A stretch of 64,000 nucleotides of DNA from Candidatus Eiseniibacteriota bacterium (GTDB lineage Bacteria > Eisenbacteria > RBG-16-71-46 > CAIMUX01 > VGJL01). The stretch covers positions 12,390 to 76,389 of the forward strand of contig JAXDAY010000010.1 of the NCBI GenBank assembly GCA_034679345.1. Direction: 5' to 3'. The notes below the pieces were generated by a model. That model did no database searches. It was not told the origin of the DNA and was given only the letters and a program-made list of their open reading frames with translations. Shown here piece after piece: positions 13,628-41,443 of this stretch (position 1 is its first letter; the number at the start of each line of letters is the position of its first letter). A program made the position numbers and the translations under genes.

Positions 13628-13628
13628 G

Positions 13629-17278: not shown

Positions 17279-17282
17279 CCGT

Positions 17283-22564: not shown

Positions 22565-22595
22565 GGAAGCCAGGCCGACGCGTGAGCGAGCGAAA

Positions 22596-22626
22596 GACCC
22601 CACGGGGGAGGCTTCCCCGTGGGGTC
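22596..22626 (-). terminator. GC-rich hairpin (12-bp stem GACCCCACGGGG/CCCCGTGGGGTC) downstream of the OmpA-like gene
   Basis: Seen directly. On the minus strand it is followed by TTTCGCTCGC, a weak U-tract. It lies 70 nt after the stop at 22698. Confidence 0.45.
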
Positions 22627-22697
22627 TTGACGGGTTCACGGCTACCCGCCCTGCGGCGGGCCTCCGAGGTCGACCGATCTCGTTCCGGCGATCCTGA

Positions 22698-24326
22698 CTA
22701 CTGGATCACCTGGAACTCGATACGGCGGTTCCGAGCGCGACCCAGGTCCGAATCGTTGGTGTCGATCGGCTGGCTCTCGCCCTTGCCCTCGGTCGCGATC
22801 CGATCCGCAGCGATTCCGCGCTTCACGAGGTAATCCTTGATCGCCTCGGCGCGACGGATCGACAGCTTCATGTTCGCAGCGTCGCCGCCCACGTTGTCCG
22901 TGTGGCCCGTGATCTTCAACTTCATGTCCGGCCGCTCGCGCATGATCCGAGCGACGTCCTCGAGGACCGGGATCGGATCGGCGCCGCTGATCTCTGCCGT
23001 TGCGAACTTGAAGTTGATGTAAGCCAGCACCGGAATCATCGGCATCGACTCGTCCGGACAGCCGTCCGCGTCCTCGAAGCCGTTGAAGGTCTCGGCGACG
23101 CTCGGGCACTTGTCGTCCTTGTCCAGGATGCCGTCCCCGTCATTGTCGGCATCCGGACAACCGTCGCTATCCTGCCACCCGTCGACGTCTTCCGCCTGGT
23201 TCGGGCAGTCGTCATTGATGTCGGGGATGCCGTCCCCGTCATTGTCGCCTTCCGGACAGCCATCGGCGTCCTGGAACCCGTCCAGGTCCTCGGCGAGCGT
23301 CGGGCACTGATCGACGTCATCGGGAATGCCGTCCCGATCGGCGTCACCGAAGCCGACGGCTTGCATCCCCTCGTCACCGAACTTCAAGGCGACCGAGAAC
23401 CGGTGGTTCTCGTTCAGGAAGTCCTGATTGTCGTTCACGTACGCGTAGTCCGCCTCGAGGAACTTGAACCGCATCCCGAAGCCCGCCGCGAAGTCACCGT
23501 CGTTCAGGCCGGCGCGGACCGCCGCAGCGACCTCCTCGGTGAGCGGCATCCGGAACTCGGCCCCGGTGTGGAACTGGTAGTCGTCGTCGTCCTGCGTCTT
23601 CTCCACGTCGAAGGCCGTGGTGAGGCCGTGGATCGGCCAGACCGCGAGGCCCGCGCGAAGGTTGGTCGGCAGGTCCTCCGCCTCGTCGACGCTGCCGAGC
23701 TTGCCCGCGATGTCCTGCACCGCGAGACCGAACCGGAACTGCTCGTGCAGCTGCAGACCGAAGCCCAAGTCGATGCCGTAGCCGTTGATGGCATCGTCCG
23801 ACCCGCCGGCGAGATCCGCGCCGACAGACTCACGGAGATACTTCCCCGTGATTCCAAGCGACGCGATGTCCCAGCGCTTCGCGAGAGAGAGCATGAATGC
23901 GTTGTCGGAAAAGTCAAAGTCCTTGATGTACTGGCCGTCGGCCCCGCGCTGCTCGATGTCGGACATTCCCGCATTGAGCCAGTTGAAGCCGTAGGCGCCC
24001 CACTCGGCGTTGCGAGCGAAGCCGATATGGTTGTACTTCCGATCGACCTCCATCCCGCTGGAGAACATTCCGCCGACGCTCCAGCCGCGGGTCCAGGTCA
24101 GACCCGCCGGATTCCAGTAGCCGGCCGTCAGATCGTTCGCCACACCGACGAAGGCCCCACCCATCCCCAGGGCCCGAGCTCCGACTCCCATCCTCAGATA
24201 GGGAGCGTTGTGATTGTTGGCTTGGTCTCCGGGACTATCTGCCGCGAAGGCGGATCCCCCTGTTAGGAGAAGCAACCCTGTGAGCGCCACCACGGCCAGG
24301 ATCGCCCTCCGATTCCGTCTAAGCAT
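22698..24326 (-). CDS. Outer-membrane protein: PorV/PorQ-like (FadL-fold) N-terminal barrel + thrombospondin type-3 Ca-binding repeats + C-terminal OmpA peptidoglycan-binding domain
   Basis: 542 aa. Signal peptide MLRRNRRAILAVVALTGLLLLTGGSAFA. N-terminal motif LRMGVGARALGMGGAFVGVANDLTAGYWNPAGL. TSP3 repeats DADRDGIPDDVDQCP / DNDGDGIPDINDDCP / DNDGDGILDKDDKCP. OmpA domain ITGHTDNVGGDAANMKLSIRRAEAIKDYLVKRGIAADRIATEGKGESQP. RBS AAGGAGG 8 nt before the ATG. Confidence 0.8.
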   Translation of the reverse strand: MLRRNRRAILAVVALTGLLLLTGGSAFAADSPGDQANNHNAPYLRMGVGARALGMGGAFVGVANDLTAGYWNPAGLTWTRGWSVGGMFSSGMEVDRKYNHIGFARNAEWGAYGFNWLNAGMSDIEQRGADGQYIKDFDFSDNAFMLSLAKRWDIASLGITGKYLRESVGADLAGGSDDAINGYGIDLGFGLQLHEQFRFGLAVQDIAGKLGSVDEAEDLPTNLRAGLAVWPIHGLTTAFDVEKTQDDDDYQFHTGAEFRMPLTEEVAAAVRAGLNDGDFAAGFGMRFKFLEADYAYVNDNQDFLNENHRFSVALKFGDEGMQAVGFGDADRDGIPDDVDQCPTLAEDLDGFQDADGCPEGDNDGDGIPDINDDCPNQAEDVDGWQDSDGCPDADNDGDGILDKDDKCPSVAETFNGFEDADGCPDESMPMIPVLAYINFKFATAEISGADPIPVLEDVARIMRERPDMKLKITGHTDNVGGDAANMKLSIRRAEAIKDYLVKRGIAADRIATEGKGESQPIDTNDSDLGRARNRRIEFQVIQ

Positions 24327-24381
24327 CTCACTACCTCCTTGTTGAACCCGTCGTCACACGATCATCAGAACAAGACTGAGG

Positions 24382-24409
24382 GCGGGGGGGAGGGTTCCCT
24401 CCCCCCCGC
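24382..24409 (-). terminator. Very stable hairpin (13-bp stem GCGGGGGGGAGGG/CCCTCCCCCCCGC) 10 nt after the giant gene stop, just upstream of the OmpA-like gene RBS
   Basis: Seen directly. The minus-strand downstream sequence is CCTCAGTCTTGTTCT, moderately U-rich. It is a likely terminator/attenuator separating the giant gene from the OmpA-like gene. Confidence 0.45.
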
Positions 24410-24418
24410 AGTAGACCG

Positions 24419-27400
24419 CTACTCCCTCCAGAGGACCACCTTCAGGTTCGCTTCCTCCGTCCGGGCGCCGTCGGAGGCGGTGACACGGACGATGTAGGCG
24501 CCGTTCGCGAGCTTCGTGCCGTCGCTGGCCGTGCCGCCCCAGTAGATCCCGCCCAACTTCGACGGAGTCATCTGTTCGTGGCTGGCGAGAGTCGTCACGT
24601 AGTTACCCGCGAAGTCGTAGACCTTGATGGTCACATCGCTCGTCTTGCTCAGGGCGAAGTGGATGAGAGCATCGCCGTCGGCAGGATCGAACGGGTTCGG
24701 GTAGGTGTAGACGTCGGTCAGGGTCAACATGGTCGCCTCGACCCGGACCGTCTTCGTCGAACTGCAGGTGTGGCCAAGGCGATCCCTGGCAGTCACAGTG
24801 ATCGTGTAATCGCCGACTGCAAGCGGAGCCGGGATCGTGGCGGTGTAGTGGCCGTTGTTCCACTCCTCGTTCTCCGGAACGATCTCCTCGCCGTCCGGCC
24901 CGCGGATGATGACCACGAGGTCCTCAGCCGACGAACCGACGCCCACGCCCGTGTCCGCCGCGGTGACTTCGATCACCATCGGGGTATTCGGATCATGGAC
25001 GGAGGCCGGGAGAATGATCGCGCACTCCGGAGCGAGCGCATCCACGATGAACCTCTGCTCAACGTACTTGCTGCCGCTGTTGCGCACCTGGTCGAGGACG
25101 CCCTGCTGGTAGATGATCCGCTGCTGGCTCAGGAAGTCGAACCAGCAACCGTCGAGCACGTACAGCGTCTCCCCGCCAACGACGAGGGTGTCGACCACGT
25201 CGCACTGGAGGGCCGGGCCCTCACCCAGGAGGGTGCGGGTCTTCTGGCTGTAAAGCGTGACCTCGAGGATGTCGCCATCCTGGATCCGTCCGCCGCCCAC
25301 GATGGGCAGCTTCACGAGCAGTTCCTCGCTCGGGTCGTAGATGTTCTCAGCGCCGTAGAGAGGCGGCTCGAGGTAGGGCAGCAGCTCATCCGCCGTGCCC
25401 TCGTGCAGCAACTCGCGCTCCTCGAACTCGTCGATGTCGAGTTGCTCGTCCTCTCCGTCGACGCGCCACAGGTCGTAATGGATACCCCAGTCGATCGGGT
25501 TGAAGCATTCGAACCCGCCGACCGGATCCGTGAAGGGCTCGAGGAAGAGCTCGACGTCGTCGATGATCTCGTCGCAGTCGGGATCCTGGATGAACTCCTG
25601 CCGCTCCGGCCTCACGAAGATACCGGAGAGCGGATCGTACATCCGGACCGTCAGCATGGCGTCGTCACCGGCGATGTAACCGTGGACGTTCCGGAGCAGC
25701 GGATTCGAGACCCAGCCACCATGGAACTCCACGATCGGGGCGGTCAGGTCGACCGTGAACGGCATTGTCACCGAAGTCAGATCGTCCGTCCCGTGCGTCC
25801 TGTATTCCACTGTGATCGTGTGATCGCCCTCAGCCAGCCAGTCGCGCTGGATGGGAGAGTGGAAGTAGTCGAGCTCGTAGATGGTCGAGTGGCCATCGTT
25901 GCCGTCGTCGTTCGCGCTCATGAGGTGCGCGCCGCCAGCGCCCCAGACCCAGGTCGCGATGACGTCCTCGGCGAAGTCGCTCACGTCGTAGAACGTGGCG
26001 ACGTCGCGGTCGTCCACCTTGACCTTGACTGTGCTGGCCTCGATGCCCTGTCCGCCGATGTCGTGCAGATAGAAGCTGAAGATCGGATCGGCATCCGTCA
26101 CCCAGTTGCTCAGGTAAGCGGAGTGCGGCGTCACGTTGGCGAGGAACACCGGCGCGCCGCTCTTCGGAGCGAAGACCTCGAAGACCGTACCGTCGCTGTT
26201 GATCGACGAGAGATTGTCCACATTGAAGGAGATCTCGTTCGCCTCGGTGTTGACCCGGATGTTCATGATGCCCTCGGCATCCGAGTAGTCGTAGTCCCAA
26301 CGCCGAACCGTCAGCATCTCCTCCGTGACGCCCTCGTTTTCAGCCAAGGCGGCATTCAGAGCTTCGTCGCTGTACTTGATCACGATCGTCGGAAGGTATC
26401 CTTCCCGGAAGTCGTCATAGTACTCGCTTTGGCTCTTCGTAACCTCGATGTGCCACGCAGTGTCCTTCAGAGGAGTCAGATAGACCCTCTCCTCGGGACT
26501 CAGCTGCGGCGCGATGGTCTCGCTGACGAGCAGGCAGGCGTCGTCCTCCATCCAGGCGCCGCTGACCACGGTCACCTGGCTATAGAGGTCTCCGTAGCCC
26601 TGCGTCACCACCGTGCCATTCGTGCCGAGTTCCGTCGTGACGGGGAACTCGTGAATCGCGGTGGTCACCTCATCGATGAACCACTCGGGATTCTGCATGC
26701 CGGTCACGAAGACCTTGAAGTGCAAGCATTCGTCGATTGGGTACTCATCGTCATAGGTTTCCGTGAGACTGATCCGTCCGCGCCAAACCGTCGGATCATC
26801 GAGGGAGCGGACCAGACCGAACTGGCCGTTCTCGGGATCGGACGGAACTCCGGCGGAGTAGATCCACCAGTAGTCGTTCGGCGCGACGACGTTGTCGCTC
26901 TCTCCGAGGACTACGACACGAGGCCGATCAGTCGAGTTCGGCATGTCGACGGTCAGGATCGCCTGCGGTTCGCTGTTTTCGTCCGCGCTTTCGATCTGAA
27001 CCGACACGTCCTCGACGATCGGCGGCGCCGTGCGAAGGGCCCGGAAGGTCCAGGCGCCGTCATAGGGCCACTCGGTCGGATCGTTGACATCGTCGAGACG
27101 GATGAGCTCCGCCCGCATCATCGGCACCACGTCCGCCGGGTCATCGCCGTAGCGGTTGCCGTCGGAATCCTTCGCGAGAGCGCGCAACCAGAAGAGGGCG
27201 CCTTCCTGGAAGTTGAAGGCCGTCGTCTCGATACGCGTCCGCCACAGGACTTCAGTGGTGTAGTCGTGCTGGCCGGTCACCTGCTCGCCGAATCCGATGT
27301 TCACCCACTCATGATCGAGATCGTTCTCGCCCTCGATCGTGTCGTACTGGAACAGAACATCCTCGATGCTCGGGTCGCTCTCGGCGAGCGCGTAAATGTA

Positions 27401-30400
27401 GAGGTAAGTCAACGGATTCTCGCCGTGCGGATCCTGATCGGGGTCGAACGCCACGACCCGAGCCGTCGGCGGGATGTTGTCGCGAATGATGACATTGACG
27501 TTTCCGCTGGTCGCCGCGTTGCCGCACTCGTCGATCGCGGTGACCCGCAGCAGGTACTCGCCGTCCACCACCAGGCCGGTCGTGTTCCAGAGAACCGAAC
27601 CGGTCACGGCGGAAGGATCATCGAGATCCGCCGGGTCGAAGACGATCGTCCCAAGGTCGCGCCAGATATCGCCATCCGGCTCATCGTCCTTGTTCAGATC
27701 CTCGGCGACCTGGAACTGCATCTGCGTGACGAACGTCTCGTGGCCGAGCGGAGCGTTCGGGATGTTGGCCTCGTCGTCCGAAGCCGTCGCCCAGATCTCC
27801 ACCTCGAGGCCGCGCGTGACTTCCGTCACCTGCCCGAAGTCGATCGGATCCTGAGTCGGATCGTCGACCGCGAGCTTGATGTTGGTGATGTTCACCGGAT
27901 CCGGAGCCGTCGTATCGAGCGTGTTCTTCCAGGAGTAGATCACGTTCGCGTTGCCGGCGACGTCCATGACCCTGACGCGCAGGTCGATCAGCTCGCCCAG
28001 CGCATCGAAGTCGGGATTCGGCTTGCAGCCATCCTCGTCGAACTCCATCGCGTCGAAGTCCATGGTCTTCGACAGGGTGTTCAGAGCGTCGTCGTAGAGG
28101 TAATCCTCCGAGACGCCGCAGGGACGCCACAGAGTCGAATCCTCGTACGACCACTTCCACTCGAACACTGCGTCGAACACGTCGTCGTGCTGGACATCGC
28201 CGTTCTCGTAGGTCTGGCCACGATCGGTGATCTGAGCGATCAGATCGAAGATCCGGTGGCCGTTGCGCTCGTCGATCTCCGCATCGCACCACTTCGAAGT
28301 CGCCTCCGTCGGGTGGAGCAGAGCAAACGGCGGGGCGGTCCAGTCGACGAAGACCAGGATCTTCGCCGCCGCATCGAACGGTTCGGTGTTGCCCGCGTCG
28401 TCGGCGCCGAGAGCCGCGACCTCGTACCAGGTCTGGTCATCGAGGGTCGTCAGATCCCACGGACCGGTGAGCCGCCAGGTGAACCGATCCACCTGCTCGG
28501 TGACCGCATCGATGAGGGTCGGCGTGTCCGCCGTCCCCAGCTTGCGGTAGACGAAGTTCACGTAGCTGAGATCGAGGTGACCCGTCAGCAGCTTCGCGTT
28601 GATGTGTTCGATCGACGAGGCGTGAAGCGCCGTCGGGTTCATGATCTGTTCGGTATCGCCGAAGGTGCGCTGCACCTCGGTGATCGTCATGTGAGGCGGG
28701 ATCGTGTCGATGATCTCGAAGGTGAGGCCGCGGCCTTCGGTCAGGTTCGTCACCTGATCGGTCGCGTTGCCGACCTCGTCCTCGACGAGCGTCGAGAAGT
28801 CGTACTGCTCACCGACCTGAAGCGGGAGCGGCCAATCGACGTCATCGGGGTTCTCGAGACCCACCGAACCAAGATCCAGGTTGAAGCTGTAAGGACGAGT
28901 GTGGTCCGGGTTGATGTCGCCGTCCGTGGCGCTCCAGTCCTCGTCGAACGAGTGGTAGGAGCCCGGGAAGTTGACATCACGCGTCCTCTTGAAGAAGAAC
29001 TCGACCGTGTCGTCCTCGTTCGCAGGATCCGTGGAGGCCAGGAACGTGACCACCTCGTTGCGCTGGATCCGATCGGCATCGGGATCCGCGGTCAACGTGG
29101 CGGTCGGAGCATCCATGTCGACCTTGATGATCGCCGTGGTCGTCTGCCCGACCTCTTCCACGTTACCGGCCTCGTCGGTCGCCTTTGCGGAGAGCTTGTA
29201 CCAGCCGCTCCACTTGAGGCTGCCATCGAGGTTCGTCTCCGTGAGATCCCAGTACAGGTGCCACAGGTAGTAGTAGTTCCCGCCGTTCGGGTACTCGTCC
29301 TTGCCGATGGTCACCGGATCGCCGATCGCCTGGCCCTGCTCGTCCACCGGGGTGGCGAAGAACTCGACGAACTCGATTCCGTCGTCACCGTCCGGTAGCG
29401 GCGGGCCTGGGATCTCCTGATCCCCGCCGTTGAAGTCGTCGCCGAAGCGCGTCCTGGCAACGATCGTGACCAACCGGGCGACCTTCATCTTGTTCATGAG
29501 GTCGTTGTTCCCGAGGAAGCCCTCGTTGACATCGCGCGGCCAGGTGTTCTTCCACATACCGATGACCTCGTCGGACTCGGTCTCGTCGGGGATGTTCGCC
29601 CCGCCGGCCGTGCTCAGGACGAAGTCGGAGTAGTAGTCGTAGTCATCCTCGGTGTCCGAGGGATCGCTGCCATCGCGGTCGACCCAGACGTAGGTGTTCG
29701 CATCCTCGCTGGCATCCTCGGTGTCGAAGGCGAAGACCTTCGCCTCGACGTCGATGATCTTGGTAGCGACCGGCGGGTTCTCGTCGCGCACGACGTAGTC
29801 CGCGGCCTTCCAGTCGAGAGCGTTGCCGGCCGGATCGATGGCCATCACCCACACCTCGATCGGTGTGTCGTGGAAGACCTCGGTCGGCCAGACCCACGAA
29901 GCGTCGAACAGCCACTGGCAGTTCGGCGTGTCCAGGGTGCCCTCGACCGTGTCGTCCGGTCCGAGGCCGCCCTCAGGCGTCGAGGCGATGACGTACTTCG
30001 TCTCGTCGCCGGCCAGCTTGAAGTAGAGCTGAACGTGCCGCACGTCGGTGATGGCGTCCTGGAGAACGACGTGGAAGTCGACGTTCTCACCCGGCGCGAT
30101 CTCCCCGTATGGCTGGTTGTCGCTGAAGTCCCACAGCGTCGGATCGCTGAAATCGACCGCGGCGGTGACGTAGGCCGGATCGGCCTGGTTCGCGTTCGTG
30201 TTACACGCCGCGTCGGTGGCGAGAACGCGCCACTCCAGCACCCCCTCCGGGATGCCCAAGCCGGCCGCGTTGTCGGCGAAGTCCTCGATGTGCGCGATCC
30301 ACTGCTTGTGTCCGGCGACCTCGGGCGGCCCCGGCGCGTAGTGGAACTCGATCGCGACGTCGTTCCAGTCCAGGGTCCCCGGGAGGCGCCACTGGAGCGT

Positions 30401-33400: not shown

Positions 33401-36400
33401 GTGGACCGTCCACCGGAAGTTGTACGGGTAGTCCCGATCCGGATAGGAGTCCCAAGGGGTGTCGTCCGGGAAGGTGTCCATCTGAGCCGCGGAGAGCAGC
33501 TTCCAGCCCGGCCGATCCGTCGTGCAGGCGGGATTCGGGCGGTACCACAGCCGCACCCACTCGATCTCATCGGAGTCTTCCGCCGTCACGTGGACGAGGA
33601 AGGTGCGCGAGGTGGCCGGATTCTCATCGGGTCCGAGGACCTGATAAGGATCGCCGTCGGAGACGGGGTGGAACACGTCCACAACCTCGTCGTCCTCGGT
33701 CTCGACGCGCACCGGGCCCGTCATGATCGGCGGGGTCCAGTCGCGGAAGAGGATCGACTCGAAGTCGGTGCCGGTCAGATCCGACTCGGGGCACTCGCGC
33801 GAACTCTCGACCGTCGCTGTGAGATCGCAGAGCTGGCTGCCCGCGACCGCGTAACCGGCGAGGTCGTAGTACGCGAAGTACGGCTCGACGGAGTCTGCCT
33901 GGTTGACCGAGTCCTGGTCGTCGACCGTCTGGCCGTCGTTGTCCCAGTCGCCGACGACCCAGTCGATGCCGTCCCAGTAGACGTCCTCGCGAACGAGTGG
34001 AACGAGGAGCTGCCCTTCCGGAGTGTCGACGAACGGCGCGTTGCGCCCGGCGTCCAGCACCTCGTCGATGCCCGGATCGTAGAGCCAGTTCTCGTTGACG
34101 TCGCGGATCCGCTCGTCATCGAGATACGGCGCGTAGCTCCTCTGATTGAGGAACTCGCTGCGCGTATCGCGGACGGGGTCGTCCCGATACTGGAAGCCGG
34201 GCAGACCGTTCAGATCGGCGTAGGAGTCGCCGTCCGGGTTCGGCCCGATGACCTCATTGGGCTCGCCCGTGAACGTGGCCGTGAAGACGATGTTCTCGAT
34301 CTCTTCGCCCGCCGGGACGGCCCGCACGCGGAAGAACCGCGCGTTCTTCGGCATCTCATCGATATCCGGCGGCGTGGTGTCCAGGTCGAGCGTGACGATG
34401 TCGTAGCTCCAAGTGTCGTTGGAGGGATCGCCGTCGCCCTGGTCGTCATAGAGCGGCACGAAGGCCTCGACGACCGTCAGGTCGACATCGACCTCGGAGC
34501 AGTTGACGGTGACGATCTGAAGCTCGAGCGGGTTCCAGTTGTCCGGGTCGTACTGATGCTCCTGGATCTGGTCTTCCTCGCCGGAGCGGGTGATGGCGAT
34601 CGTGCGGACGATGTAGTCGCCATCGCTCTGCGTCTCGTCGCCGCACGGATCCCAGTCGATCTTCCACAGATTCAGCCCGATGAGGGCCGGATCGAGGTCG
34701 TCGCCGTAATCCGTGTAGTTCTCGCGGTTCTCGCGGAAGATATAGTCGGACGGGTCAAGATTCTCCCAGTCGTTGGGAGTCCCGTCGCAATCGTCCGCCT
34801 GCTCGGCCCAGTAGTAGGCCGGGTTGGCGTTCGAATCGTCGTCGTAGGTCGTGAACCGGGTGAGCGGAACGCCGTCGGGGATGTTCTCGCTGTAGGTGTC
34901 CGACCCGATGACGACGATGTCGATTCCCTCGTCATAGACGTCGTTCTCGTTCACGTCCTCGATGACCGCGTCCCTCGAGGAGTAGACCGGGAAGCCGACG
35001 ATGTAGTCGTTGTCGGCGTTGTAGTAGGAGTACCAGCGGTCGTCCGGCCCATACGAGAAGAACCGGCTGGCGCCGCCATAGGCCGCCTCGAGGAAAGCGA
35101 GGTCGTCGCGGCAGCCGTTGTCGGAGTTGAACCGGTAGATGAGCTGGTCGCCGCGCTCGCCGATCGCGTCAGGATCGGATCCGCCGACGGTGCCGATCGT
35201 CTCCCAGACCTCTCCGGCATCGAGATCGTTGCCGTTGACGACGATCTCCTTCAACCGCTCGAACCGGACCCGGTCCGGGTCGAGGCCGTTGCAGCCATGG
35301 ATGTAGTGGAGGCCGTAGAGCTTCAGCTGCCCCTCGAGAGCGGGAGGAGAGGAGCAGTAGACCGGCTCGATATAGACGCGGCAGGGGAAGAAGTCCTGTC
35401 CGGGGTAGAGCCACTCCCACGCGGTCTCCTCCGGGTTGATCGTCTCGATGCGGCCGACGTTCCCTTGCCAGTCCGCGGCCGCCAGCAGGAACGCCAGCTC
35501 GCTCGGCGAGGTGATCTCGTCACCTTCCACCGTCTGCCAGATCGTCCCGTTGGGCGGGGGCGGAACATTCCCGTACGGGGGAAGCCCGTCTCCCACATAG
35601 ATGCTCAGCCCGATCCGATGCGGAGAGTTCACTCCGTCGATCTGACGGGGCCTCATGTTCCCGAGCGCGATGGCCCTGTCCAGATAGGTGGCCATCTTCG
35701 TCTTGTCCCAGCTACCCTCGTTTCCGCGAAGCACGGGGTAGAGGAAGTACTGGTCGCCGTCGTCGATCCCCGACTCGTAGAACCGGAGATAGGCGGTGTA
35801 GGTCTGGTTGGGCTCATCGAAGGTCCAACCATCCTCGCCGGAGACCCAGTCGTTGGTCAGCGTGACCAGGCGAGGGCGGCTCTCCTCCATCACCGGGGTC
35901 CAGAATAGGTTGGCGTCATAGTAGGAGTTGCCGTCGACGTCCTGCAGGTCCGTGCCCCCCTCCACCGGCTCGGCGAACCGGATCCGGCAGCCCTGCTCGT
36001 ACGGATCGGCGCTCTCGCTGAAGTCCCGGATGATGATGACCGGGAAGTTGTCGCCGTCCGGCGGCTGATAGTCCACCACCTCGTTACCGCCGAAGGCGAA
36101 TCCCTGGAGATCGAAGTTCTGGGTGATGTCCAGGGTCCCGTCGTCGATCTGGGCCGCCTGAGCGGGAAGGATCGGCAGCGACAGGTAGATGTAGAGCGCA
36201 TCGTTGGAGAGATCATCGTTGTCGGGGTCGCTGGGATCCTTGTTCTCGTCGTACGAGGACCGCACGATGCCGCCGCCGACATGGATGCTGATCGTATCGT
36301 CGGGGACCGCCAGTTGACCTTGGTAATCCTCGAAGAACTGCGCGGATCCTGGAATCGTCACCCCGACGTCGTCGATGTTGACGTCGTTGATGCTGAAGTT

Positions 36401-37468
36401 CCGCACACGGACGATGTTCGACCAGAACGTCGAGTACCAGTTCTCGGTCACGCCGCCGAGGATCGCTCCCGCCGGATTCGACGTGAACCAGTTGTCGAAC
36501 GGACCGCCTGCGTTCTTCGTGGTGACCATCTGGTCGAACACGCCGACCAGCACGTCGAGGTTCGCGTGGTAGTACATGGCGTGGAACAGCGGCCCGCCGC
36601 CATCGTTGGTCGTCTCGACGTAGGTTTCCACGTTCTGGAGCTTCGGGCTCCTCGGATCGTCCTCCCAGACCAAGTAGCCGTCGTCGAGGTGCAGATTCAT
36701 GACGCCCGGCTGCATGTAGAGGAAGTCGTTCCCCGAGCTGCGGCTCAGATCGAGGACGTTCGTATTGATGCCAGCGCCCGTGAGGGTGGCTTCGTTGAAC
36801 TCGATGGTCCCGCCGAAGGCGCCGTTCCAGTTGACGCCGGTCGCCCACACCACGTCGGCGTCGAAGGTGACGAGGACATGGTTGTCGTTGGGGCCGTCGT
36901 CGACCGAGAGATCGTTCGCGATGCCGGTGATCTCGACCCGCGTGATCACGGGGCCGTCGCCGACGATGAGAGTCGAGACGTCGATGCTGTCATAGCCGGT
37001 GAGGTCTCTGACCTCTCCCGCCTTGAGCGCGATCTCCTCGATCGCACCGTCCTCGAACTGGGCGTCGACGAGCCCGTTGGGGAAGGTGAGATAGAGAACG
37101 TTGTCCCCGTCGTTGCTGCCGTAACCCATCTCGGTGAGGTCCATGGTCTCCGAGACGAAGTCGTCGTCGGGAGTCCCGGTGTCCTCTCCGATCATCGCCG
37201 GATCGATGGCCTCGTTGAAGACCAGCACGACCCGCGGCCCGGTTGGGTTAAACGTCGTGGCAACTAGATACGGCGCACCGCTCACCGGGGTCTCTTGCGG
37301 TGGCAAGAGGCTTGTCCCAAAGCTGGTGGGATACGCCGGGTAGTTGATGACCGTGTTCTCCGCCGGCGCAAGGTCACGGGTGTCGGCGTATGCCCCGTAG
37401 ACCGCACCGAGCAAGGTGAGCGCTAGGATAACCATGAAGACAGTGCTCCTGGTCCTGAATCCGCTCAT
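24419..37468 (-). CDS. Giant (~4349 aa) acidic secreted cell-surface protein: signal peptide, >15 Ig-like/cadherin-like modules, C-terminal T9SS-type / FlgD-Ig-like sorting domain
   Basis: ORF-track frame 24419..37744, uninterrupted. True start MSGFRTRSTVFMVILALTLLGAVYGAYA at 37468, preceded by AAGGAGGAAGAGGGTG. Recurrent module-start motifs DxxAPxx / DxxPPxx every ~200-300 aa (DKDAPIVSNF, DQTAPGAFLMW, DREAPAVVYGP, DMDAPTATLTADP, DTIPPHMTITEV, DWTAPPFALLHP, DTTAPDPVNITNI, DNIPPTARVVAF, DLTAPIVEFHGG). Extreme D/E excess with few K/R. The C-terminal block is YTYPNPFDPADGDALIHFALSKTSDVTIKVYDFAGNYVTTL...GIYWGGTASDGTKLANGAYIVRVTASDG. Confidence 0.85.
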   Translation of the reverse strand: MSGFRTRSTVFMVILALTLLGAVYGAYADTRDLAPAENTVINYPAYPTSFGTSLLPPQETPVSGAPYLVATTFNPTGPRVVLVFNEAIDPAMIGEDTGTPDDDFVSETMDLTEMGYGSNDGDNVLYLTFPNGLVDAQFEDGAIEEIALKAGEVRDLTGYDSIDVSTLIVGDGPVITRVEITGIANDLSVDDGPNDNHVLVTFDADVVWATGVNWNGAFGGTIEFNEATLTGAGINTNVLDLSRSSGNDFLYMQPGVMNLHLDDGYLVWEDDPRSPKLQNVETYVETTNDGGGPLFHAMYYHANLDVLVGVFDQMVTTKNAGGPFDNWFTSNPAGAILGGVTENWYSTFWSNIVRVRNFSINDVNIDDVGVTIPGSAQFFEDYQGQLAVPDDTISIHVGGGIVRSSYDENKDPSDPDNDDLSNDALYIYLSLPILPAQAAQIDDGTLDITQNFDLQGFAFGGNEVVDYQPPDGDNFPVIIIRDFSESADPYEQGCRIRFAEPVEGGTDLQDVDGNSYYDANLFWTPVMEESRPRLVTLTNDWVSGEDGWTFDEPNQTYTAYLRFYESGIDDGDQYFLYPVLRGNEGSWDKTKMATYLDRAIALGNMRPRQIDGVNSPHRIGLSIYVGDGLPPYGNVPPPPNGTIWQTVEGDEITSPSELAFLLAAADWQGNVGRIETINPEETAWEWLYPGQDFFPCRVYIEPVYCSSPPALEGQLKLYGLHYIHGCNGLDPDRVRFERLKEIVVNGNDLDAGEVWETIGTVGGSDPDAIGERGDQLIYRFNSDNGCRDDLAFLEAAYGGASRFFSYGPDDRWYSYYNADNDYIVGFPVYSSRDAVIEDVNENDVYDEGIDIVVIGSDTYSENIPDGVPLTRFTTYDDDSNANPAYYWAEQADDCDGTPNDWENLDPSDYIFRENRENYTDYGDDLDPALIGLNLWKIDWDPCGDETQSDGDYIVRTIAITRSGEEDQIQEHQYDPDNWNPLELQIVTVNCSEVDVDLTVVEAFVPLYDDQGDGDPSNDTWSYDIVTLDLDTTPPDIDEMPKNARFFRVRAVPAGEEIENIVFTATFTGEPNEVIGPNPDGDSYADLNGLPGFQYRDDPVRDTRSEFLNQRSYAPYLDDERIRDVNENWLYDPGIDEVLDAGRNAPFVDTPEGQLLVPLVREDVYWDGIDWVVGDWDNDGQTVDDQDSVNQADSVEPYFAYYDLAGYAVAGSQLCDLTATVESSRECPESDLTGTDFESILFRDWTPPIMTGPVRVETEDDEVVDVFHPVSDGDPYQVLGPDENPATSRTFLVHVTAEDSDEIEWVRLWYRPNPACTTDRPGWKLLSAAQMDTFPDDTPWDSYPDRDYPYNFRWTVHEQGLDLTDGNYQFFAEAIDGIGNYSWIPVYPYGFGFNQWAGEDLAYVIDPVKPDDLCLPSETVLNIGDGRTIVGEVDPDFDNVAQVRFYFAPRIQNTSYAGSDVDANLMLALEKPILDQRGAGVVVCIGGVELVSGVDYTASAGDTFITFAVAPDADAEITVSYNFMGTGVPPDAIQYPGAYSDGWLLIAAGDDVEPFTVEWAEGPEGGVPDPENPDGDMGTLDWSGANAYDLVAVGLMDLDGSGWYEDTSVCDLVEPIISEGNHVILREVARPIVHLYGLDYEQGDEWGYPQQEPPAAPELGWPGNPFGLAPAGTPEHKGSGVENDVFVTASTTDATAEITEVKLDFYQAFESDPFSTVLLDVVNDFYSGDKALSMALTMYVADYYEVRSDEIENVALWIREEGAVDYTSLPMSNVGHPDYYQVIYDGFMPGTVYEYRFFIDKIGDDDGNYADRRNSSGGQGTTSLIALPDEFYYYMFDTSVLESDAYRVLVTVTDNKGMVGTNLSDGSDAPQGPIMFMYDKDAPIVSNFWADNGGVMPGAESEITVHLESTDGPDINVITTRTVVFQYSPNKNDDGTPDEWLTFAIDRDPADGWSGVLHFGGAGFDPPESDGYDNDGDGEVDLPADPDEIVSVLPVRAVVFDDAGYGGDPTDDLFPGSGNPVYAMLEPALIYDGYAPTTMINNPHDGDTFLFGDVIQVTGTADDHATPESPASAIDYVVFEYRFEDADWIEIDPTPNDNTDLNRIEPTEEGQVTFNVDFDTNWLGTREDTYLRFRMLATDVAGNTTIEDDLHADEVVVIVDDQTAPGAFLMWMNTELCGCDRLTDETGYANRVVTLYGMVTAGSALELEDLVGVDIMLQPDGGEAVILGRADDIAFGDIPLDCRGDYTPGANTAFFVLEWDTDNGPDGRYQDGLYQLWAEALDADGNRTTSVHSNIQVDREAPAVVYGPEGGRPFVNLAMYFNDGVVDHESPVIAPDPYTGDVEFYVYTPADDMIDVLTLQWRLPGTLDWNDVAIEFHYAPGPPEVAGHKQWIAHIEDFADNAAGLGIPEGVLEWRVLATDAACNTNANQADPAYVTAAVDFSDPTLWDFSDNQPYGEIAPGENVDFHVVLQDAITDVRHVQLYFKLAGDETKYVIASTPEGGLGPDDTVEGTLDTPNCQWLFDASWVWPTEVFHDTPIEVWVMAIDPAGNALDWKAADYVVRDENPPVATKIIDVEAKVFAFDTEDASEDANTYVWVDRDGSDPSDTEDDYDYYSDFVLSTAGGANIPDETESDEVIGMWKNTWPRDVNEGFLGNNDLMNKMKVARLVTIVARTRFGDDFNGGDQEIPGPPLPDGDDGIEFVEFFATPVDEQGQAIGDPVTIGKDEYPNGGNYYYLWHLYWDLTETNLDGSLKWSGWYKLSAKATDEAGNVEEVGQTTTAIIKVDMDAPTATLTADPDADRIQRNEVVTFLASTDPANEDDTVEFFFKRTRDVNFPGSYHSFDEDWSATDGDINPDHTRPYSFNLDLGSVGLENPDDVDWPLPLQVGEQYDFSTLVEDEVGNATDQVTNLTEGRGLTFEIIDTIPPHMTITEVQRTFGDTEQIMNPTALHASSIEHINAKLLTGHLDLSYVNFVYRKLGTADTPTLIDAVTEQVDRFTWRLTGPWDLTTLDDQTWYEVAALGADDAGNTEPFDAAAKILVFVDWTAPPFALLHPTEATSKWCDAEIDERNGHRIFDLIAQITDRGQTYENGDVQHDDVFDAVFEWKWSYEDSTLWRPCGVSEDYLYDDALNTLSKTMDFDAMEFDEDGCKPNPDFDALGELIDLRVRVMDVAGNANVIYSWKNTLDTTAPDPVNITNIKLAVDDPTQDPIDFGQVTEVTRGLEVEIWATASDDEANIPNAPLGHETFVTQMQFQVAEDLNKDDEPDGDIWRDLGTIVFDPADLDDPSAVTGSVLWNTTGLVVDGEYLLRVTAIDECGNAATSGNVNVIIRDNIPPTARVVAFDPDQDPHGENPLTYLYIYALAESDPSIEDVLFQYDTIEGENDLDHEWVNIGFGEQVTGQHDYTTEVLWRTRIETTAFNFQEGALFWLRALAKDSDGNRYGDDPADVVPMMRAELIRLDDVNDPTEWPYDGAWTFRALRTAPPIVEDVSVQIESADENSEPQAILTVDMPNSTDRPRVVVLGESDNVVAPNDYWWIYSAGVPSDPENGQFGLVRSLDDPTVWRGRISLTETYDDEYPIDECLHFKVFVTGMQNPEWFIDEVTTAIHEFPVTTELGTNGTVVTQGYGDLYSQVTVVSGAWMEDDACLLVSETIAPQLSPEERVYLTPLKDTAWHIEVTKSQSEYYDDFREGYLPTIVIKYSDEALNAALAENEGVTEEMLTVRRWDYDYSDAEGIMNIRVNTEANEISFNVDNLSSINSDGTVFEVFAPKSGAPVFLANVTPHSAYLSNWVTDADPIFSFYLHDIGGQGIEASTVKVKVDDRDVATFYDVSDFAEDVIATWVWGAGGAHLMSANDDGNDGHSTIYELDYFHSPIQRDWLAEGDHTITVEYRTHGTDDLTSVTMPFTVDLTAPIVEFHGGWVSNPLLRNVHGYIAGDDAMLTVRMYDPLSGIFVRPERQEFIQDPDCDEIIDDVELFLEPFTDPVGGFECFNPIDWGIHYDLWRVDGEDEQLDIDEFEERELLHEGTADELLPYLEPPLYGAENIYDPSEELLVKLPIVGGGRIQDGDILEVTLYSQKTRTLLGEGPALQCDVVDTLVVGGETLYVLDGCWFDFLSQQRIIYQQGVLDQVRNSGSKYVEQRFIVDALAPECAIILPASVHDPNTPMVIEVTAADTGVGVGSSAEDLVVIIRGPDGEEIVPENEEWNNGHYTATIPAPLAVGDYTITVTARDRLGHTCSSTKTVRVEATMLTLTDVYTYPNPFDPADGDALIHFALSKTSDVTIKVYDFAGNYVTTLASHEQMTPSKLGGIYWGGTASDGTKLANGAYIVRVTASDGARTEEANLKVVLWRE

Positions 37469-38040
37469 CACCCTCTTCCTCCTTTGGTTGACCATGCCGC
37501 CCTGGAACCGATGCTGGGCGGACTTGTCCCTGTTCCCTCTGCGTGGCGCAACCCCCAAATGGCACAACGGGAGCTCGCGCTTCCCTTCGTTTGTGACTCC
37601 CCCATTTCGGGGCTGCCCATGAAGCGTCCTGCACACGTGATGCACGCGTCCTCGCATCTTCTCTAAAGCACCAAAGAGGGGCGATGGACATAGCGTCCCC
37701 GCTCCGCCTTGCCTACGGATGAGTCGACTTCGTTTCTTCAGCAAACTCCCCCATGATCATCCATCCCTTGCCGGACGTCGACGGACGTCATGCGCCATTG
37801 CGTATGGCGACCAACCCCCTGCAAGAGTGGACCTTACAGTGTCGCGCACAGAACCGGCTGGCAGACTGTCACAGCAGTCAAGCGGTGTCAACACGAAATT
37901 CTAGAACCCCCGAGCATCATTTGAGGAAGATCCCCCTGGGGGTTATCGGCCGTCGAGGAGCGATCCATCAGCGCGATTCCCGGACCCGTCGGAGTCACAT
38001 TATTCAAGTGAACCGACGCAAATACAGACCACAGGGCTGG

Positions 38041-38082
38041 ATGAAAACCGGCCCGCCCCAAGGATCGCGTCCGGGGCGGGCC
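38041..38082 (-). terminator. Rho-independent terminator-like hairpin (10-bp stem GGCCCGCCCC/GGGGCGGGCC, 13-nt loop) followed on minus strand by GGTTTTCAT, ~25 nt after the CARDB-protein stop
   Basis: Seen directly at 38050-38082 plus a U4 tract at 38041-38049. It implies the giant gene has its own promoter in 37469-38040. Confidence 0.5.
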
Positions 38083-38106
38083 GAGCAGGCAGTGATCACG
38101 CAACCT

Positions 38107-40983
38107 CTAGCGGACCAATACGATCTTGCGAACGAACGTCTCCGCTCCCAAGGCGATCCTGACGTAATAAACTCCAGCGGGAGCCTGCGCCCCGAGATTC
38201 GTCTCCCCGGTCCAGGCCCACTCTCCGCCGCCCGCTCCGATCTCGCCATTCCCGATGATTTGAACTTCCTTGCCCTGAACATCGAAGACCGCGACGCGAA
38301 CCTGAGTGGCGAATCCCGGGACGATCCGGATCGGACTGCCGGGCAGATACGGGTTGCGGAAGAGGATGCGTCCACCCTCGAGCCGAGGGTCGAGACTCGC
38401 CAGCGAGATGCCATCGCCGGCTAGGTCGCCGCGCGCCAGATCCTTGTCGTACAGGCTGCCCCCGACCCGGTCGATCCGCGAACCCGCCAACCGGTCGGAG
38501 TCGAGAATCCGGAAGACGCAACGTCCGACCCGACCTCCGGTCCACTGGATCTCTTCCGAGAGATCGAACCTCGGGATGAAGGCGACGCGCGCCGTCCCTC
38601 CCGATTCGCCCTCGCGCGCCGCGAGGAAGTCGTGGGGCGCGCTCTCTCCCGGGGTCTGCTGGAGGGACTGGAAGTCGAGCACGGTCCCGTCGAAGGCGAG
38701 TTCCCACTCCCCGCCGATCAGCGTGTCATCCGCCTCGAGGTCCATCTCGACGAGCAGGCTGTCGCCGCCCTGGCTGAGGCTGGCCACAAGATGAAGCGAT
38801 CCCATCGGATCCGAAGCGTTCTCCACGCGGGCGACTCGCGCCCCCTCCCCCACGAGGCCGCAGGGAGGATAGCTGACGCAGGTGAGACCGTCTGCCGTGG
38901 GATCCGGACCACAGGCGCCGAACGGGGCAGCCGGAGGCGGACCATTGGCGAACTGATAGTTCAGGCTGCCGAGAACGTCGGCGAGGTCGAGCGCGCCGGA
39001 ATCGTTGAAGTCGGCCGCGTCCATGCAGGCCGGAGCCTCGCCGCCGCCGTACTGGTAGTGCAGGATCAGCAAGGCATCCGTGATGTCAATCGCCCCGTTG
39101 GCGTCGGCATCGCCCCGAATGAACCCGCTGCCGTGGATCAAGACGCTGCCGTCGACCACCTCGGGAACGACCGAGGTCGCATCGCAGAGGGTCATGCGGT
39201 TGAGCGTCCTTTGATCCTCGACGAGACGGATCTCCGTCGGGCCGCCCGGAGCGTTTGGCAGGACGTTGAAGACGAGATCGATGAACGTGTCATCGCCCGG
39301 CGGGATCGCATCGGGACAGAGGAAGGAGAAGAGCACGCCGACACGTCCGCTACCTGCAGCGCCCGAGTGCTGTACATGTTCGGCTCCCTCGCAACGGGTG
39401 CCCGTTGTGGAGACCCCCTGGTAGCCGAGGACAAGCGGGTCGTACTCGAACCGGAATCCCAGTCCGAGGATCGGCTCGCTGTTGCTGCCGCGAATCGGAA
39501 TTCTGACCGCCGTGTCGCCCGGATCGAAGCTCAGGCCCGACGCGACTTCGAAGGAGAAGCCGACGATTGAGCAAGTGAAGCTCCCCGGGAGGCAATTGTT
39601 CGTCTCATCAGACTCGATGACGACCGAGCCGGCATCCGCGCACGCCTCGAGCGTATGGTCCCCCGCCGCGTACCCCTCGAGCGTGCACCAGCTGGTCCAG
39701 GCCTCGCCGTTGACCGCGAGCGCCGGGACCTGCAGGTTGCAGAGGGGATCCCCGTCGAGCGATATCTGGCAGAGCGACGCCGAAGAGGCGGCCTGCCCGA
39801 TGTTCCGCACCAGAGCGCGGGCGCCGCCTGGGCAGTCGGGCGAGTCCAGCTCGAGCTGCGAGACGATCAGATCGGGCCGGAGGCAGGAGATGAACTCGGT
39901 TCGGAGATTGTTCTCCTCGTCGATCTCCTGGATCAGATTCGTCGCGTCCGCCCGCGCGGTGACGGAACGGTTCCCGGGCCCGTAGCTTCCGAGATCGCAA
40001 TAGTCCGTCCAGACCGCCTGTCCCGGCTGCAGGGCGGGCACGGTCTTGTCGCACAGGGCGTTGCCGTCCAGCGAGATGCGGCAGATGGTGGACGGCGCGT
40101 CCGCCTCGCCGACATTCCGGACGTAGGCCCTCGCCTCGGTGGCGCAGTTCGCGCTCGGGAGGAAGTCGATGTCCTGCACCTCGAGATCGGCGGTGGCGCC
40201 GACGGTCTTGCGGATGCGGACTTCGTCAACGAAGGCTCCGTTGGGAATCACCGGCACGGTGGTGTTCGAGTTCGAGAAGAAGGCGAAAGCGACCCAGACC
40301 TCGGATCTCCCGACGACGGCTTGGAGGTCGAAGCGCTCGTTGCGGTGCCATTGGTCTCCGAAGTCGCCGGATCGGAACTCGCCGGCAAAGGACTGCCCAT
40401 CGGTGCTCGATGCGACGAATAGACGGTCGAGGTTCCCCGATTGGCAACGCACCCACCAATCGTAGAGGACCTCCGCGCCCGTCGCGTCGGAGAGATCGAA
40501 GGGGCCGGCGATCATGAAGGCGGAGGAGCCGTTGGGATAGCTCTCATCGCATGGCTCGTAGCCGTCGCCGCCAAAGTTTCGGTACCCGTTCGCGCACCAC
40601 GCGGCGGAACTTCCGACCGAGGACCTGCATCCCTGGACGTCATCCCAGGTCCATCCAAGCCCGCCCCACCGGAGCGTCCAAGGCCCACAGTCGCCGCCCT
40701 GCGGGAATCCGTCCTCGAACCCCTCCGTGCAGAGGGTGATGACCGACATGACCTCGGAAACGGATTCCTCCGACGCGGGCCGGACGCCTCCAGGGGCGAG
40801 ATCCGAACCGTCATCCACCACCGTCCACTCGTCCTCGTGGCCGATCGTGACCCGGACTCCGCGCAGGATCTGCGGCTCGCCCAGCGTCCCGGCATCCTCC
40901 GCGGATGCAGGGAGCTGACCGAGCCAGCAGGCCGAGAGAACGACGAACAGCGAGCCGACCCACAGGCGACCCCGATGCTTCAT
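38107..40983 (-). CDS. Secreted multidomain surface protein: two CARDB domains, cohesin-like module(s), type-I dockerin, C-terminal T9SS-type / FlgD-Ig-like sorting domain
   Basis: ORF-track frame 38107..41235. True start MKHRGRLWVGSLFVVLSACWLGQLPASA at 40983 with RBS GGGAGGG. The CARDB unit is duplicated (VRNVGEADAPSTICRISLDGNALCDKTVPALQPGQAVWTDYC / VRNIGQAASSASLCQISLDGDPLCNLQVPALAVNGEAWTSWC). Cohesin-like SFDPGDTAVRIPIRGSNSEPILGLGFRFEYDPLVL. Dockerin GDADANGAIDITDALLIL...ADFNDSGALDLADVLGSLNYQF (two DxNxDGxxxxxD loops). C-terminus ILFRNPYLPGSPIRIV...VAVFDVQGKEV...AGVYYVRIALGAETFVRKIVLVR. Confidence 0.8.
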   Translation of the reverse strand: MKHRGRLWVGSLFVVLSACWLGQLPASAEDAGTLGEPQILRGVRVTIGHEDEWTVVDDGSDLAPGGVRPASEESVSEVMSVITLCTEGFEDGFPQGGDCGPWTLRWGGLGWTWDDVQGCRSSVGSSAAWCANGYRNFGGDGYEPCDESYPNGSSAFMIAGPFDLSDATGAEVLYDWWVRCQSGNLDRLFVASSTDGQSFAGEFRSGDFGDQWHRNERFDLQAVVGRSEVWVAFAFFSNSNTTVPVIPNGAFVDEVRIRKTVGATADLEVQDIDFLPSANCATEARAYVRNVGEADAPSTICRISLDGNALCDKTVPALQPGQAVWTDYCDLGSYGPGNRSVTARADATNLIQEIDEENNLRTEFISCLRPDLIVSQLELDSPDCPGGARALVRNIGQAASSASLCQISLDGDPLCNLQVPALAVNGEAWTSWCTLEGYAAGDHTLEACADAGSVVIESDETNNCLPGSFTCSIVGFSFEVASGLSFDPGDTAVRIPIRGSNSEPILGLGFRFEYDPLVLGYQGVSTTGTRCEGAEHVQHSGAAGSGRVGVLFSFLCPDAIPPGDDTFIDLVFNVLPNAPGGPTEIRLVEDQRTLNRMTLCDATSVVPEVVDGSVLIHGSGFIRGDADANGAIDITDALLILHYQYGGGEAPACMDAADFNDSGALDLADVLGSLNYQFANGPPPAAPFGACGPDPTADGLTCVSYPPCGLVGEGARVARVENASDPMGSLHLVASLSQGGDSLLVEMDLEADDTLIGGEWELAFDGTVLDFQSLQQTPGESAPHDFLAAREGESGGTARVAFIPRFDLSEEIQWTGGRVGRCVFRILDSDRLAGSRIDRVGGSLYDKDLARGDLAGDGISLASLDPRLEGGRILFRNPYLPGSPIRIVPGFATQVRVAVFDVQGKEVQIIGNGEIGAGGGEWAWTGETNLGAQAPAGVYYVRIALGAETFVRKIVLVR

Positions 40984-41390: not shown

Positions 41391-41443
41391 CTCGGCGAGC
41401 CTAACCTGCCGCGGCGCTTCGCGCAACGCCCGAGACCCGCGCA

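Follow-up and report, generated by a model that had tools for sequence, protein, structure and literature searches.

The 64,000-nt stretch of DNA analysed here (the window; contig JAXDAY010000010.1 of a Candidatus Eiseniibacteriota bacterium) carries three consecutive open reading frames (ORFs) in tandem on its minus strand, which we call genes A, B and C in that order. Gene B encodes a giant acidic protein, and gene C encodes a PorV-type outer-membrane barrel that continues into thrombospondin type-3 (TSP3) repeats and an OmpA-like domain. The conserved unit is the B–C pair, not the trio. We give an even chance to the overall reading that B is a surface fibre of T9SS type (T9SS, type IX secretion system) anchored by C, a wall-tethered barrel, and that A is an accessory.

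A preliminary description of this DNA had presented the three as exported envelope genes on one strand. Their coordinates are confirmed, and sequence inspection finds a Sec-type signal peptide at the start of each product. The host belongs to Candidatus Eisenbacteria (Eiseniibacteriota), the name carried by the metagenome-assembled genomes that hold full-length homologues of C (45–90% identity), and the exact sequence of the locus is also on record in the Logan assembly of SRR24057989. The three genes, and the elements of the B–C pair, are as follows.

38107..40983, minus strand: gene A, 958 aa; signal peptide, N-terminal beta-rich domain, two CARDB domains, cohesin-dockerin-cohesin, FlgD_ig/T9SS-type C-terminal domain (CTD)
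37863..37891, minus strand: promoter-like box ahead of gene B, TTGACA, 17 nt, CAGTCT (relatives: TGGCATAGT)
37469..37862, minus strand: 5′ leader of B, ~390 nt, with conserved patches and the ribosome-binding site (RBS) AAAGGAGGA, from alignments
24419..37468, minus strand: gene B, 4349 aa; non-repetitive giant with a T9SS-type CTD
24467..24919, minus strand: Big_13 Ig-like domain and FlgD_ig/T9SS-type CTD of B (Pfam, family profile)
24382..24409, minus strand: intercistronic GC hairpin between B and C, no U tract, -35.2 kcal/mol
22698..24326, minus strand: gene C, 542 aa; signal peptide, PorV/PorQ-family barrel, three TSP3 repeats, OmpA-like domain
23379..24209, minus strand: PorV-like 14-strand barrel, C residues 40-316 (NF033709, profile, AlphaFold2 (AF2) model)
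23052..23354, minus strand: three TSP3 repeats, predicted to bind Ca, C residues 325-425 (PF02412)
22704..23027, minus strand: OmpA-like peptidoglycan-binding domain, C residues 434-541 (PF00691)
22594..22628, minus strand: terminator-like hairpin and UUU after gene C, -41.6 kcal/mol, z = -5.2

The giant gene and its barrel partner

The gene preceding C was checked in nine genomes (the window, L002, L004, L005, L006, L010, L011, L012 and L014). A giant ORF ending in FlgD_ig directly precedes the C orthologue in all nine, across C identities of 45–90%. These giants are 4311–5988 residues long, and the giant of L012 is cut by a contig end at 2497 residues. In L006 and L010 the flanks on both sides have changed, with entirely different downstream neighbours (LacI and CBM48 proteins), and the B–C pair is intact there despite this change, an observation that favours functional coupling over inherited gene order.

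The junction between the two genes is itself conserved. The B–C spacer measures 51–100 nt across the genomes examined, and seven other genomes (L002, L005, L006, L010, L011, L012 and L014) carry a perfect 10–17-bp GC stem-loop at the same place, starting 10–20 nt past the stop codon. An RBS, also conserved, follows the stem-loop before gene C. The stems covary in sequence, and none has a U tract. Spacers were folded one by one, as an alignment-based consensus fold is uninformative when the stems differ in sequence; it is the structure that is conserved and not the sequence. The L012 spacer, 51 nt in all, is too short to hold a promoter. Since the hairpin lacks a U tract and the L012 spacer is so short, we read it as an intercistronic attenuator or stabiliser rather than a full stop. 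The preliminary description had assigned each gene its own terminator. All three hairpins exist, although a strict terminator scanner missed every one of them; those after A and C are followed by UUUU and UUU, respectively, whereas the hairpin after B has no U tract and looks intercistronic.

Upstream of B, a promoter-like box lies ~390 nt before the start codon, with the consensus AATTT..TTGACA, 17 nt, TGnCAnnnT. Four genomes, namely the window, L008, L009 and L013, share this conserved box, whether gene A is present or not. The leader that separates it from B contains conserved patches such as CGTAAC.GTC.TTGT.TCAAT.GGTTG just past the -10 box and GGTTCTTGGGCGGCGTCGTCATTCAAAGGAGGA before the ATG, and its counterparts lie at ~9600-10000 in L008, ~2760-3162 in L009 and ~6190-6585 in L013. 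No Rfam family matched the leader, which could be an uncharacterised regulatory RNA element.

The product of gene B has a mass of 481 kDa, a pI of 4.05 and an Asp+Glu content of 18.7%. Its ORF spans 24419-37744. We take 37468 (MSGFRT...) as the start because the conserved RBS AAAGGAGGA precedes it, the first residues are kept in orthologues and an independent Logan call gives the same 4349 residues. Self-BLAST of B produced no off-diagonal match; with no tandem modules found, B is not a repeat protein. In B itself Pfam recognises only Big_13 and the C-terminal FlgD_ig, and weak Ig-like matches recur over seven orthologues (Big_13 in 7/7, Big_3_3 in 6/7 and Big_7 in 4/7). The earlier picture of a giant Ig-module protein is thus borne out in part, with a few weak Ig-like matches and no internal repeats; judged from sequence, an "Ig-module fibre" is plausible and only partly shown.

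Between the window and one relative, identity is 47% for B, 76% for C and 89% for ClpX, and a homologue search with its N-terminal 1000 residues returned three matches only. Overall orthologue identity is 43–49%. The first ~20 residues after the signal peptide (DTRD..P.EN.VINYPAYP) are nearly invariant, within residues 1-50 (window ~37320-37468), which suggests that the N-terminal tip is under functional constraint. Two giant orthologues (the 5988-residue protein of L011 and one more) contain a von Willebrand factor A (VWA) domain that B of the window lacks. Together with the length range of 4311–5988 residues, this variation suggests that adhesive modules vary by species while the C-terminal region and the partner gene are fixed.

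The C terminus of B carries features of a T9SS-type sorting domain. FlgD_ig (PF13860) passes its threshold with 32.4 bits, and the type-A CTD models stay below their cutoffs (TIGR04183, 22.2 versus 23; PF18962, 16.8–17.6 versus 27). A profile of the B family matches, over the last ~135 residues, the CTD of PorU (6za2, E = 2e-10) and PorZ (5m11, E = 6e-3), which are the best solved-structure matches of this domain. The CTD contains YPNPF and ends in K..[IL]W (K3294, W3298), and both motifs are invariant across the orthologues. The four A-type CTDs that were read (A, P0135, P0124 and P0128) end otherwise, without the terminal Trp. FlgD_ig CTDs are present in both A and B, in keeping with the T9SS-type or FlgD-Ig-type surface sorting proposed earlier.

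Gene C encodes a PorV-family barrel. It matches the NCBIfam model PorV_fam (NF033709) with 114 bits against a cutoff of 90, over model positions 3-326 of 326. A profile of 54 C homologues matches F. johnsoniae PorV (6h3i_F, E = 3.7e-16) and the periplasmic TSP3–OmpA part of C. gingivalis OmpA (5wtl, E = 1.9e-59). The AF2 model places 14 strands in the stretch from residue 82 to 316, with a confidence (pLDDT) of ~90; its best barrel matches in Foldseek are the PorV structures 8gl6_F and 6h3i_F (TMt 0.63–0.64), with FadL and TodX behind. The protein family in itself is not new, since NCBI already applies the name "PorV/PorQ family protein" to proteins of the C type.

Beyond the barrel, the TSP3 segment scores 31.1 bits against 25 (TSP_3, PF02412) and comprises three DxDxDGxxDxxDxCP units, with no variation in the D, G, C and P columns; Ca binding is predicted. 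The OmpA-like domain reaches 77.3 bits against 27.2 (PF00691) and superposes on OprF, Pal and the C-terminal domain of PorE (Foldseek TM 0.7–0.85). Residues T476, D477, N485, L488 and R492 are invariant among the 54 homologues, and the Asp/Arg pair of OmpA/Pal domains, here D477 and R492, binds the peptide stem of peptidoglycan. The reading of C as an outer-membrane barrel with TSP3 and OmpA domains therefore stands, with all three models over their cutoffs. In FadL/PorV-type barrels both chain ends lie on the periplasmic side; because the TSP3–OmpA extension follows the C terminus of such a barrel, it is expected to be periplasmic. By this analogy, TSP3 and OmpA would form a wall tether rather than part of a surface lattice. 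We also considered Myxococcus TraB (NF033763) as an identity for C and rejected it: the model gives 132 bits against a cutoff of 700 and matches the TSP3–OmpA half only.

Gene A and its cohesin–dockerin–cohesin cassette

The ORF of gene A extends to 41235, and its signal peptide starts from the Met codon at 40983. Pfam scores are given against the gathering threshold (GA), and HMM denotes a hidden Markov model. The modules of A are listed below.

39586..40194, minus strand: two CARDB domains, A residues ~264-466 (PF07705, 84.6 bits versus GA 22.7, two stretches)
39130..39573, minus strand: cohesin module 1, A residues ~471-618 (Pfam Cohesin, homologues, AF2, profile match 3ul4_A)
38854..39129, minus strand: dockerin-like module, A residues ~619-710 (two DxDxNGxxDxxD Ca loops, Cys-rich tail)
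38404..38811, minus strand: cohesin module 2, A residues ~725-860 (homologues P0137 and P0145; cohesin-2 HMM; 3l8q)
38110..38370, minus strand: C-terminal sorting domain of A, FlgD_ig / T9SS type-A-like (PF13860, 33.9 bits versus GA 27)
38044..38085, minus strand: intrinsic-terminator-like hairpin and UUUU after gene A (stem 38048-38085, -31.4 kcal/mol)

Several lines of evidence identify the cassette. In A itself, Cohesin (PF00963) on module 1 falls just under threshold (23.3 versus 24.1), module 2 has no Pfam match and Dockerin_1 (PF00404) is likewise just under (22.1 versus 22.9). In colinear homologues, the Cohesin GA is passed at both positions with 27.9–36.8 bits, including P0137 and P0145 at module 2. 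The cohesin-2 HMM detects cohesin 1 (E = 1.3e-9), which makes the two modules paralogous. Against sequences of the Protein Data Bank (PDB), the cassette profile matches dockerins (E = 8e-4 to 8e-3) and the cohesin 3ul4_A (E = 7.7e-3). The AF2 model of the cassette (pLDDT 83.7, from a 15-sequence alignment) shows two beta-sandwiches with a helical dockerin between them. In Foldseek, the modelled cohesins match cellulosomal 3ul4_A, 1aoh and 5nrk with TM 0.81–0.84 and root-mean-square deviations of 2.2–2.5 Å, the model as a whole matches the cohesin dyad 3l8q (E = 3e-13), and the predicted topology agrees with the nine-strand jelly roll of cohesins. The dockerin, with the loops DADANGAIDITD and DFNDSGALDLAD, is predicted at high pLDDT to form two main helices and one short helix.

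The concern that the cohesin, dockerin and CARDB calls might be spurious is removed by the agreement of domain searches, homologues and predicted fold. Of the modules described earlier, the duplicated CARDB is upheld by Pfam, and the cohesins by homologues over GA, the PDB profile and the fold. For the remaining module "dockerin-like" is supported, and "bona fide type I" is overstated. This very common module has conserved Cys residues (..GGxxPxCxDAAD..) and the tail PFPxCGxDPTxDxLxCxxxPPC, and it stands at the extreme C terminus of many proteins, P0125, P0126, P0129 and P0130 among them. It may represent a dockerin subtype of its own, braced by disulfides.

An exhaustive HMMER search with A residues 471-871 returned ~25,800 cluster representatives at E <= 1e-3, most matching the dockerin-like part only; among the best 150 homologues, about twenty match the whole cassette. 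All nine colinear homologues scanned against Pfam end in a FlgD_ig CTD, and their N-terminal parts vary, with CARDB or Kre9_KNH Ig-like repeats. The CTD of A scores 20.5 with TIGR04183, under the cutoff of 23, and the A relative P0145 passes PF18962 with 28.9. The N-terminal beta-rich domain of A (residues ~80-260, 40204-40746) matches nothing in Pfam or NCBIfam. It is 35–40% identical in other secreted proteins, P0123 (Peptidase_C1) and P0124 (FlgD_ig CTD) among them, with the conserved motifs GFE.GFP, YPN....M..GPFDLS and F.D.V.IRK.

Cohesin and dockerin modules occur in non-cellulosomal as well as cellulosomal settings (Peer et al. 2009, FEMS Microbiol Lett 291:1, as cited in PMC6487960). 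With cellulosomal modules such as the CipA, OlpA and ScaB cohesins, the cassette shares two cohesin folds, at the TM scores given above, and a dockerin with two Ca loops. Unlike in a cellulosome, no scaffoldin-and-enzyme system accompanies it at the locus, and A holds cohesins and dockerin in one polypeptide ahead of a T9SS-type CTD. Its dockerin also differs from the cellulosomal ones in the conserved Cys residues and the CGxDPTxDxLxC..PPC tail.

The position of A next to the B–C pair is recurrent and not fixed. An A-like gene occupies three of the five visible junctions between purA and the giant. The orthologue P0135 (961 residues, colinear over its full length and 39% identical; colinear orthologues range from 37 to 39%) sits between purA and a 4602-residue giant, on a contig that also carries a C orthologue at 74% identity; A is thus less conserved than C. 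P0139, with three CARDB domains and the cassette, fills the same slot on a contig from the JGI. In L008 and L009 the order is purA, tRNA-Lys, giant, with neither A nor a remnant of it. A lack of conservation of the trio, which the preliminary description had named as refuting it, is not what we see: an A orthologue keeps the slot in two relatives, and it is missing from two that keep B and C. Other cassette-bearing relatives of A lie at unrelated loci.

These orthologues, found by the HMMER search and by gene context, overturned an interim view of A as an orphan insertion. A word-indexed search had given partial matches to A only, whereas the exhaustive search found the 37–39% orthologues; for fast-evolving surface proteins, a "no homologue" result from word-indexed searching does not equal "orphan". 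No direct, att-like repeats flank A next to the tRNA-Lys gene, so insertion by a mobile element is not supported. In a metagenome scan with an alignment of the A family, the generic CARDB motif prevailed among the matches and no further A orthologues emerged, and a scan of genome contigs gave two loci only.

With its own terminator behind it and a conserved promoter of B's own, A forms a separate transcription unit. Among the six-frame ORFs of the window, the cohesin-1, dockerin and cohesin-2 HMMs matched A only, and they matched nothing in C or in eight giant orthologue sequences from seven other genomes. At this locus, the cohesin or dockerin partner of A can only be A itself. From these sequence comparisons, A appears as a frequent, fast-evolving and dispensable neighbour, a variable accessory cargo.

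A proposed wall-tethered anchor for the giant, and competing explanations

In the model that we favour, B, a very acidic fibre or adhesin, would be exported by Sec and then cross the outer membrane by way of its T9SS-type CTD. C would be its dedicated outer-membrane receptor and anchor, a role proposed by analogy: the B CTD would be retained on the surface face of the C barrel, as PorU and PorZ are on PorV and PorQ, and SprB on SprF. The OmpA domain fused to C would do the job that PorE does for PorP, passing the pulling force on a long fibre to the cell wall, and the TSP3–OmpA extension, stiffened by Ca, would carry this load to peptidoglycan. Both proteins would be made from one mRNA, under the conserved promoter and ~390-nt leader, with the stem-loop between the cistrons setting the B:C ratio or stabilising the B message. 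A would be a further T9SS-type cargo that the B–C module does not need. Its cassette probably mediates self-association or binding to cohesin or dockerin proteins encoded elsewhere, and cohesin–dockerin contacts could conceivably produce head-to-tail chains or a self-clasped protein.

The model has precedents in known systems. PorU and PorZ are T9SS surface proteins anchored on PorV and PorQ (PMC8545088). SprB binds SprF, a barrel encoded next door, and type-B cargo is anchored by adjacent PorP-like barrels (PMC9143113); a complex is also known in which PG1035 is bound to PorP, and PorP in turn to the OmpA-like PorE (Gorasia et al. 2022, PMC9143113). In SprB–SprF of Flavobacterium johnsoniae and PG1035–PorP–PorE of Porphyromonas gingivalis, as here, the cargo gene adjoins the gene of a T9SS-family barrel, and non-covalent anchoring through the cargo CTD is proposed. 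The PorP barrel is linked to peptidoglycan via a separate OmpA-like lipoprotein, PorE, whereas here the domain is fused to the barrel. C also differs from SprF and PorP in belonging to the PorV/PorQ family, with no PorP match among the 25 families listed for it. Unlike SprB and PG1035, B has a CTD that is type-A/FlgD_ig-like and not type B, and its host is one of the Eisenbacteria, not of the Bacteroidota.

The P. gingivalis pairs PorU–PorV and PorZ–PorQ (PMC8545088; PMC5562754) resemble the locus in that surface proteins are kept by PorV-family barrels. B has neither the sortase nor the PorZ-like domains of these proteins and matches them in its C-terminal ~135 residues only, and C adds TSP3 and OmpA domains to what PorV and PorQ contain. 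The periplasmic half of C is homologous to Capnocytophaga gingivalis OmpA (5WTL/5WTP; 36–40% identity), with the same TSP3 and OmpA-like domain, whereas for its membrane domain C has a barrel of the PorV type with 14 strands, not one of the OmpA type. The OmpA barrel of Bacteroidota has eight strands. A further likeness is with TraA/TraB of Myxococcus xanthus, where the gene for a large polymorphic surface receptor is paired with a barrel–TSP3–OmpA gene; unlike TraA, B shows no PA14 or MYXO-CTERM features in Pfam.

Several observations weigh against the anchoring model. The Pfam PorV model (PF19572) scores C below threshold, at 17.6 against 27. Most relatives also keep the purA, rib and glycosyltransferase neighbours, and such strong local synteny could explain part of the B–C adjacency. 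The B–C hairpin might yet terminate transcription, as U-less terminators exist in GC-rich bacteria. In Bacteroidota, type-A CTDs are as a rule cut off, with a lipopolysaccharide anchor taking their place, and the B CTD is type-A-like. Finally, instead of a dedicated anchor C could be the phylum's general PorV, a shuttle or receptor for all cargo with such CTDs that happens to be OmpA-fused in these organisms. Its place after the giant would in that case stem from an inherited gene order, or from being co-expressed with the cargo that demands most, and would not mark a one-to-one anchor. This account draws on the full-length match of C to the generic PorV/PorQ model, on PorV being its best structural match and on the many other FlgD_ig-CTD proteins of these organisms, A included; no separate PorV was seen, though no search aimed at one was made. 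We nevertheless consider it unlikely: a shuttle that has to travel between the translocon and the attachment complex (PMC5562754; PMC8545088) sits awkwardly with a permanent tether to peptidoglycan, B and C stay together when both flanks change (L006, L010), the conservation of spacer, hairpin and RBS resembles that of an operon junction, and the B CTD has an invariant signature of its own.

It is improbable that C is a housekeeping, OmpA/Pal-like envelope staple with a FadL/PorV-type barrel and B an unrelated adhesin whose adjacency is meaningless. The barrel–TSP3–OmpA design is known from Bacteroidota OmpA (5wtl), and the neighbourhood is core chromosome; yet the barrel of C is specifically of the PorV family and not the eight-strand OmpA type, its partner gene always ends in a T9SS-type CTD, and the pair is kept across rearranged contexts. 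The preliminary description had instead joined A, B and C into one self-assembling, Ca-dependent scaffold, cellulosome-like or S-layer-like, built through cohesin–dockerin contacts and anchored by C. We find this highly improbable. In its favour, the cohesin and dockerin-like modules are real, two relatives have an A orthologue in the equivalent slot, and all three proteins are acidic, with Ca-binding motifs in two. However, no such module was found in B, the giant orthologues, C or any other ORF of the window, and A is missing from two relatives that keep B and C. A is also transcribed separately, with relatives of its cassette at unrelated loci as well, and the TSP3 repeats of C are expected in the periplasm, not on the surface. 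No carbohydrate-active enzyme or carbohydrate-binding module domains were found at the locus or among the window neighbours, and the cellulosome-like assignment lacks support.

The anchoring model can be extended to a lineage-wide module, in which a PorV-type barrel with TSP3 and OmpA domains would permanently hold a ~0.5-MDa fibre by an uncleaved CTD and couple it to peptidoglycan, the leader and stem-loop would exert control, and the cassette would define a self-associating family. We put this forward tentatively, and in this full form we lean somewhat against it.

Genomic setting and significance

The surface-protein locus lies between purA/tRNA-Lys and a riboflavin operon. Its upstream flank is core chromosome (tig, clpP, clpX, purA and tRNA-Lys), as is its downstream flank (ribD, ribBA, nusB, a methyltransferase and a glycosyltransferase cluster). 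One conserved landmark separates purA from the locus.

41319..41391, minus strand: tRNA-Lys(UUU) (ARAGORN and Rfam)

The tRNA-Lys gene also follows purA in the relatives L008 and L009. No T9SS core genes lie within the window. Literature searches on T9SS in Eisenbacteria, and on the cell surface or secretion systems of the phylum, found nothing, and neither did searches for PorV–OmpA fusions.

Downstream of rib-nusB, a block on the minus strand (11715-18131) encodes a methyltransferase, a GT4 glycosyltransferase, a TMEM260-like protein, an epimerase and a GT2 glycosyltransferase. The TMEM260-like protein O-mannosyltransferase, with tetratricopeptide (TPR) repeats, lies at 13629-16181. The block keeps the same order in L002, L004/L005, L011, L012 and L014, and is not with the giant locus in L006 and L010. 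Animal TMEM260 O-mannosylates IPT/Ig-like domains, and glycosylation of the giant protein B is an idea worth testing. In several relatives, a small type IV pilin-like N_methyl gene (131–139 residues) stands directly 3′ of the PorV–OmpA gene (L002, 11958-12353; L004/L005, 12040-12444; L014, 11921-12340). The window lacks this gene, and within its 390-bp C–ribD spacer there is nothing but the terminator and, at 22536-22564, a promoter-like site.

Each module at the locus is known, and what is found is a new arrangement of known parts, not a new kind of system. Three features appear undescribed: the fusion of a PorV-family barrel to TSP3–OmpA, the strict pairing of this fusion with one giant cargo across a candidate phylum, and a cohesin–dockerin–cohesin cassette placed before a T9SS-type sorting domain. 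This last arrangement recurs in many proteins of uncultivated bacteria and is a candidate self-assembly module.

The surface retention of very large T9SS cargo is understood only in part, and almost all work on it concerns Bacteroidota. The locus offers a natural fusion of the barrel and wall-binding functions that are split between PorP and PorE in P. gingivalis, and its strict pairing makes the idea that a dedicated barrel anchors its neighbour testable. It also provides a first handle on the cell surface of Eisenbacteria. If the anchoring model is true, the pair would represent a new mode of T9SS cargo anchorage outside Bacteroidota, with C acting as PorP and PorE in one polypeptide, or as a PorQ with a wall tether.

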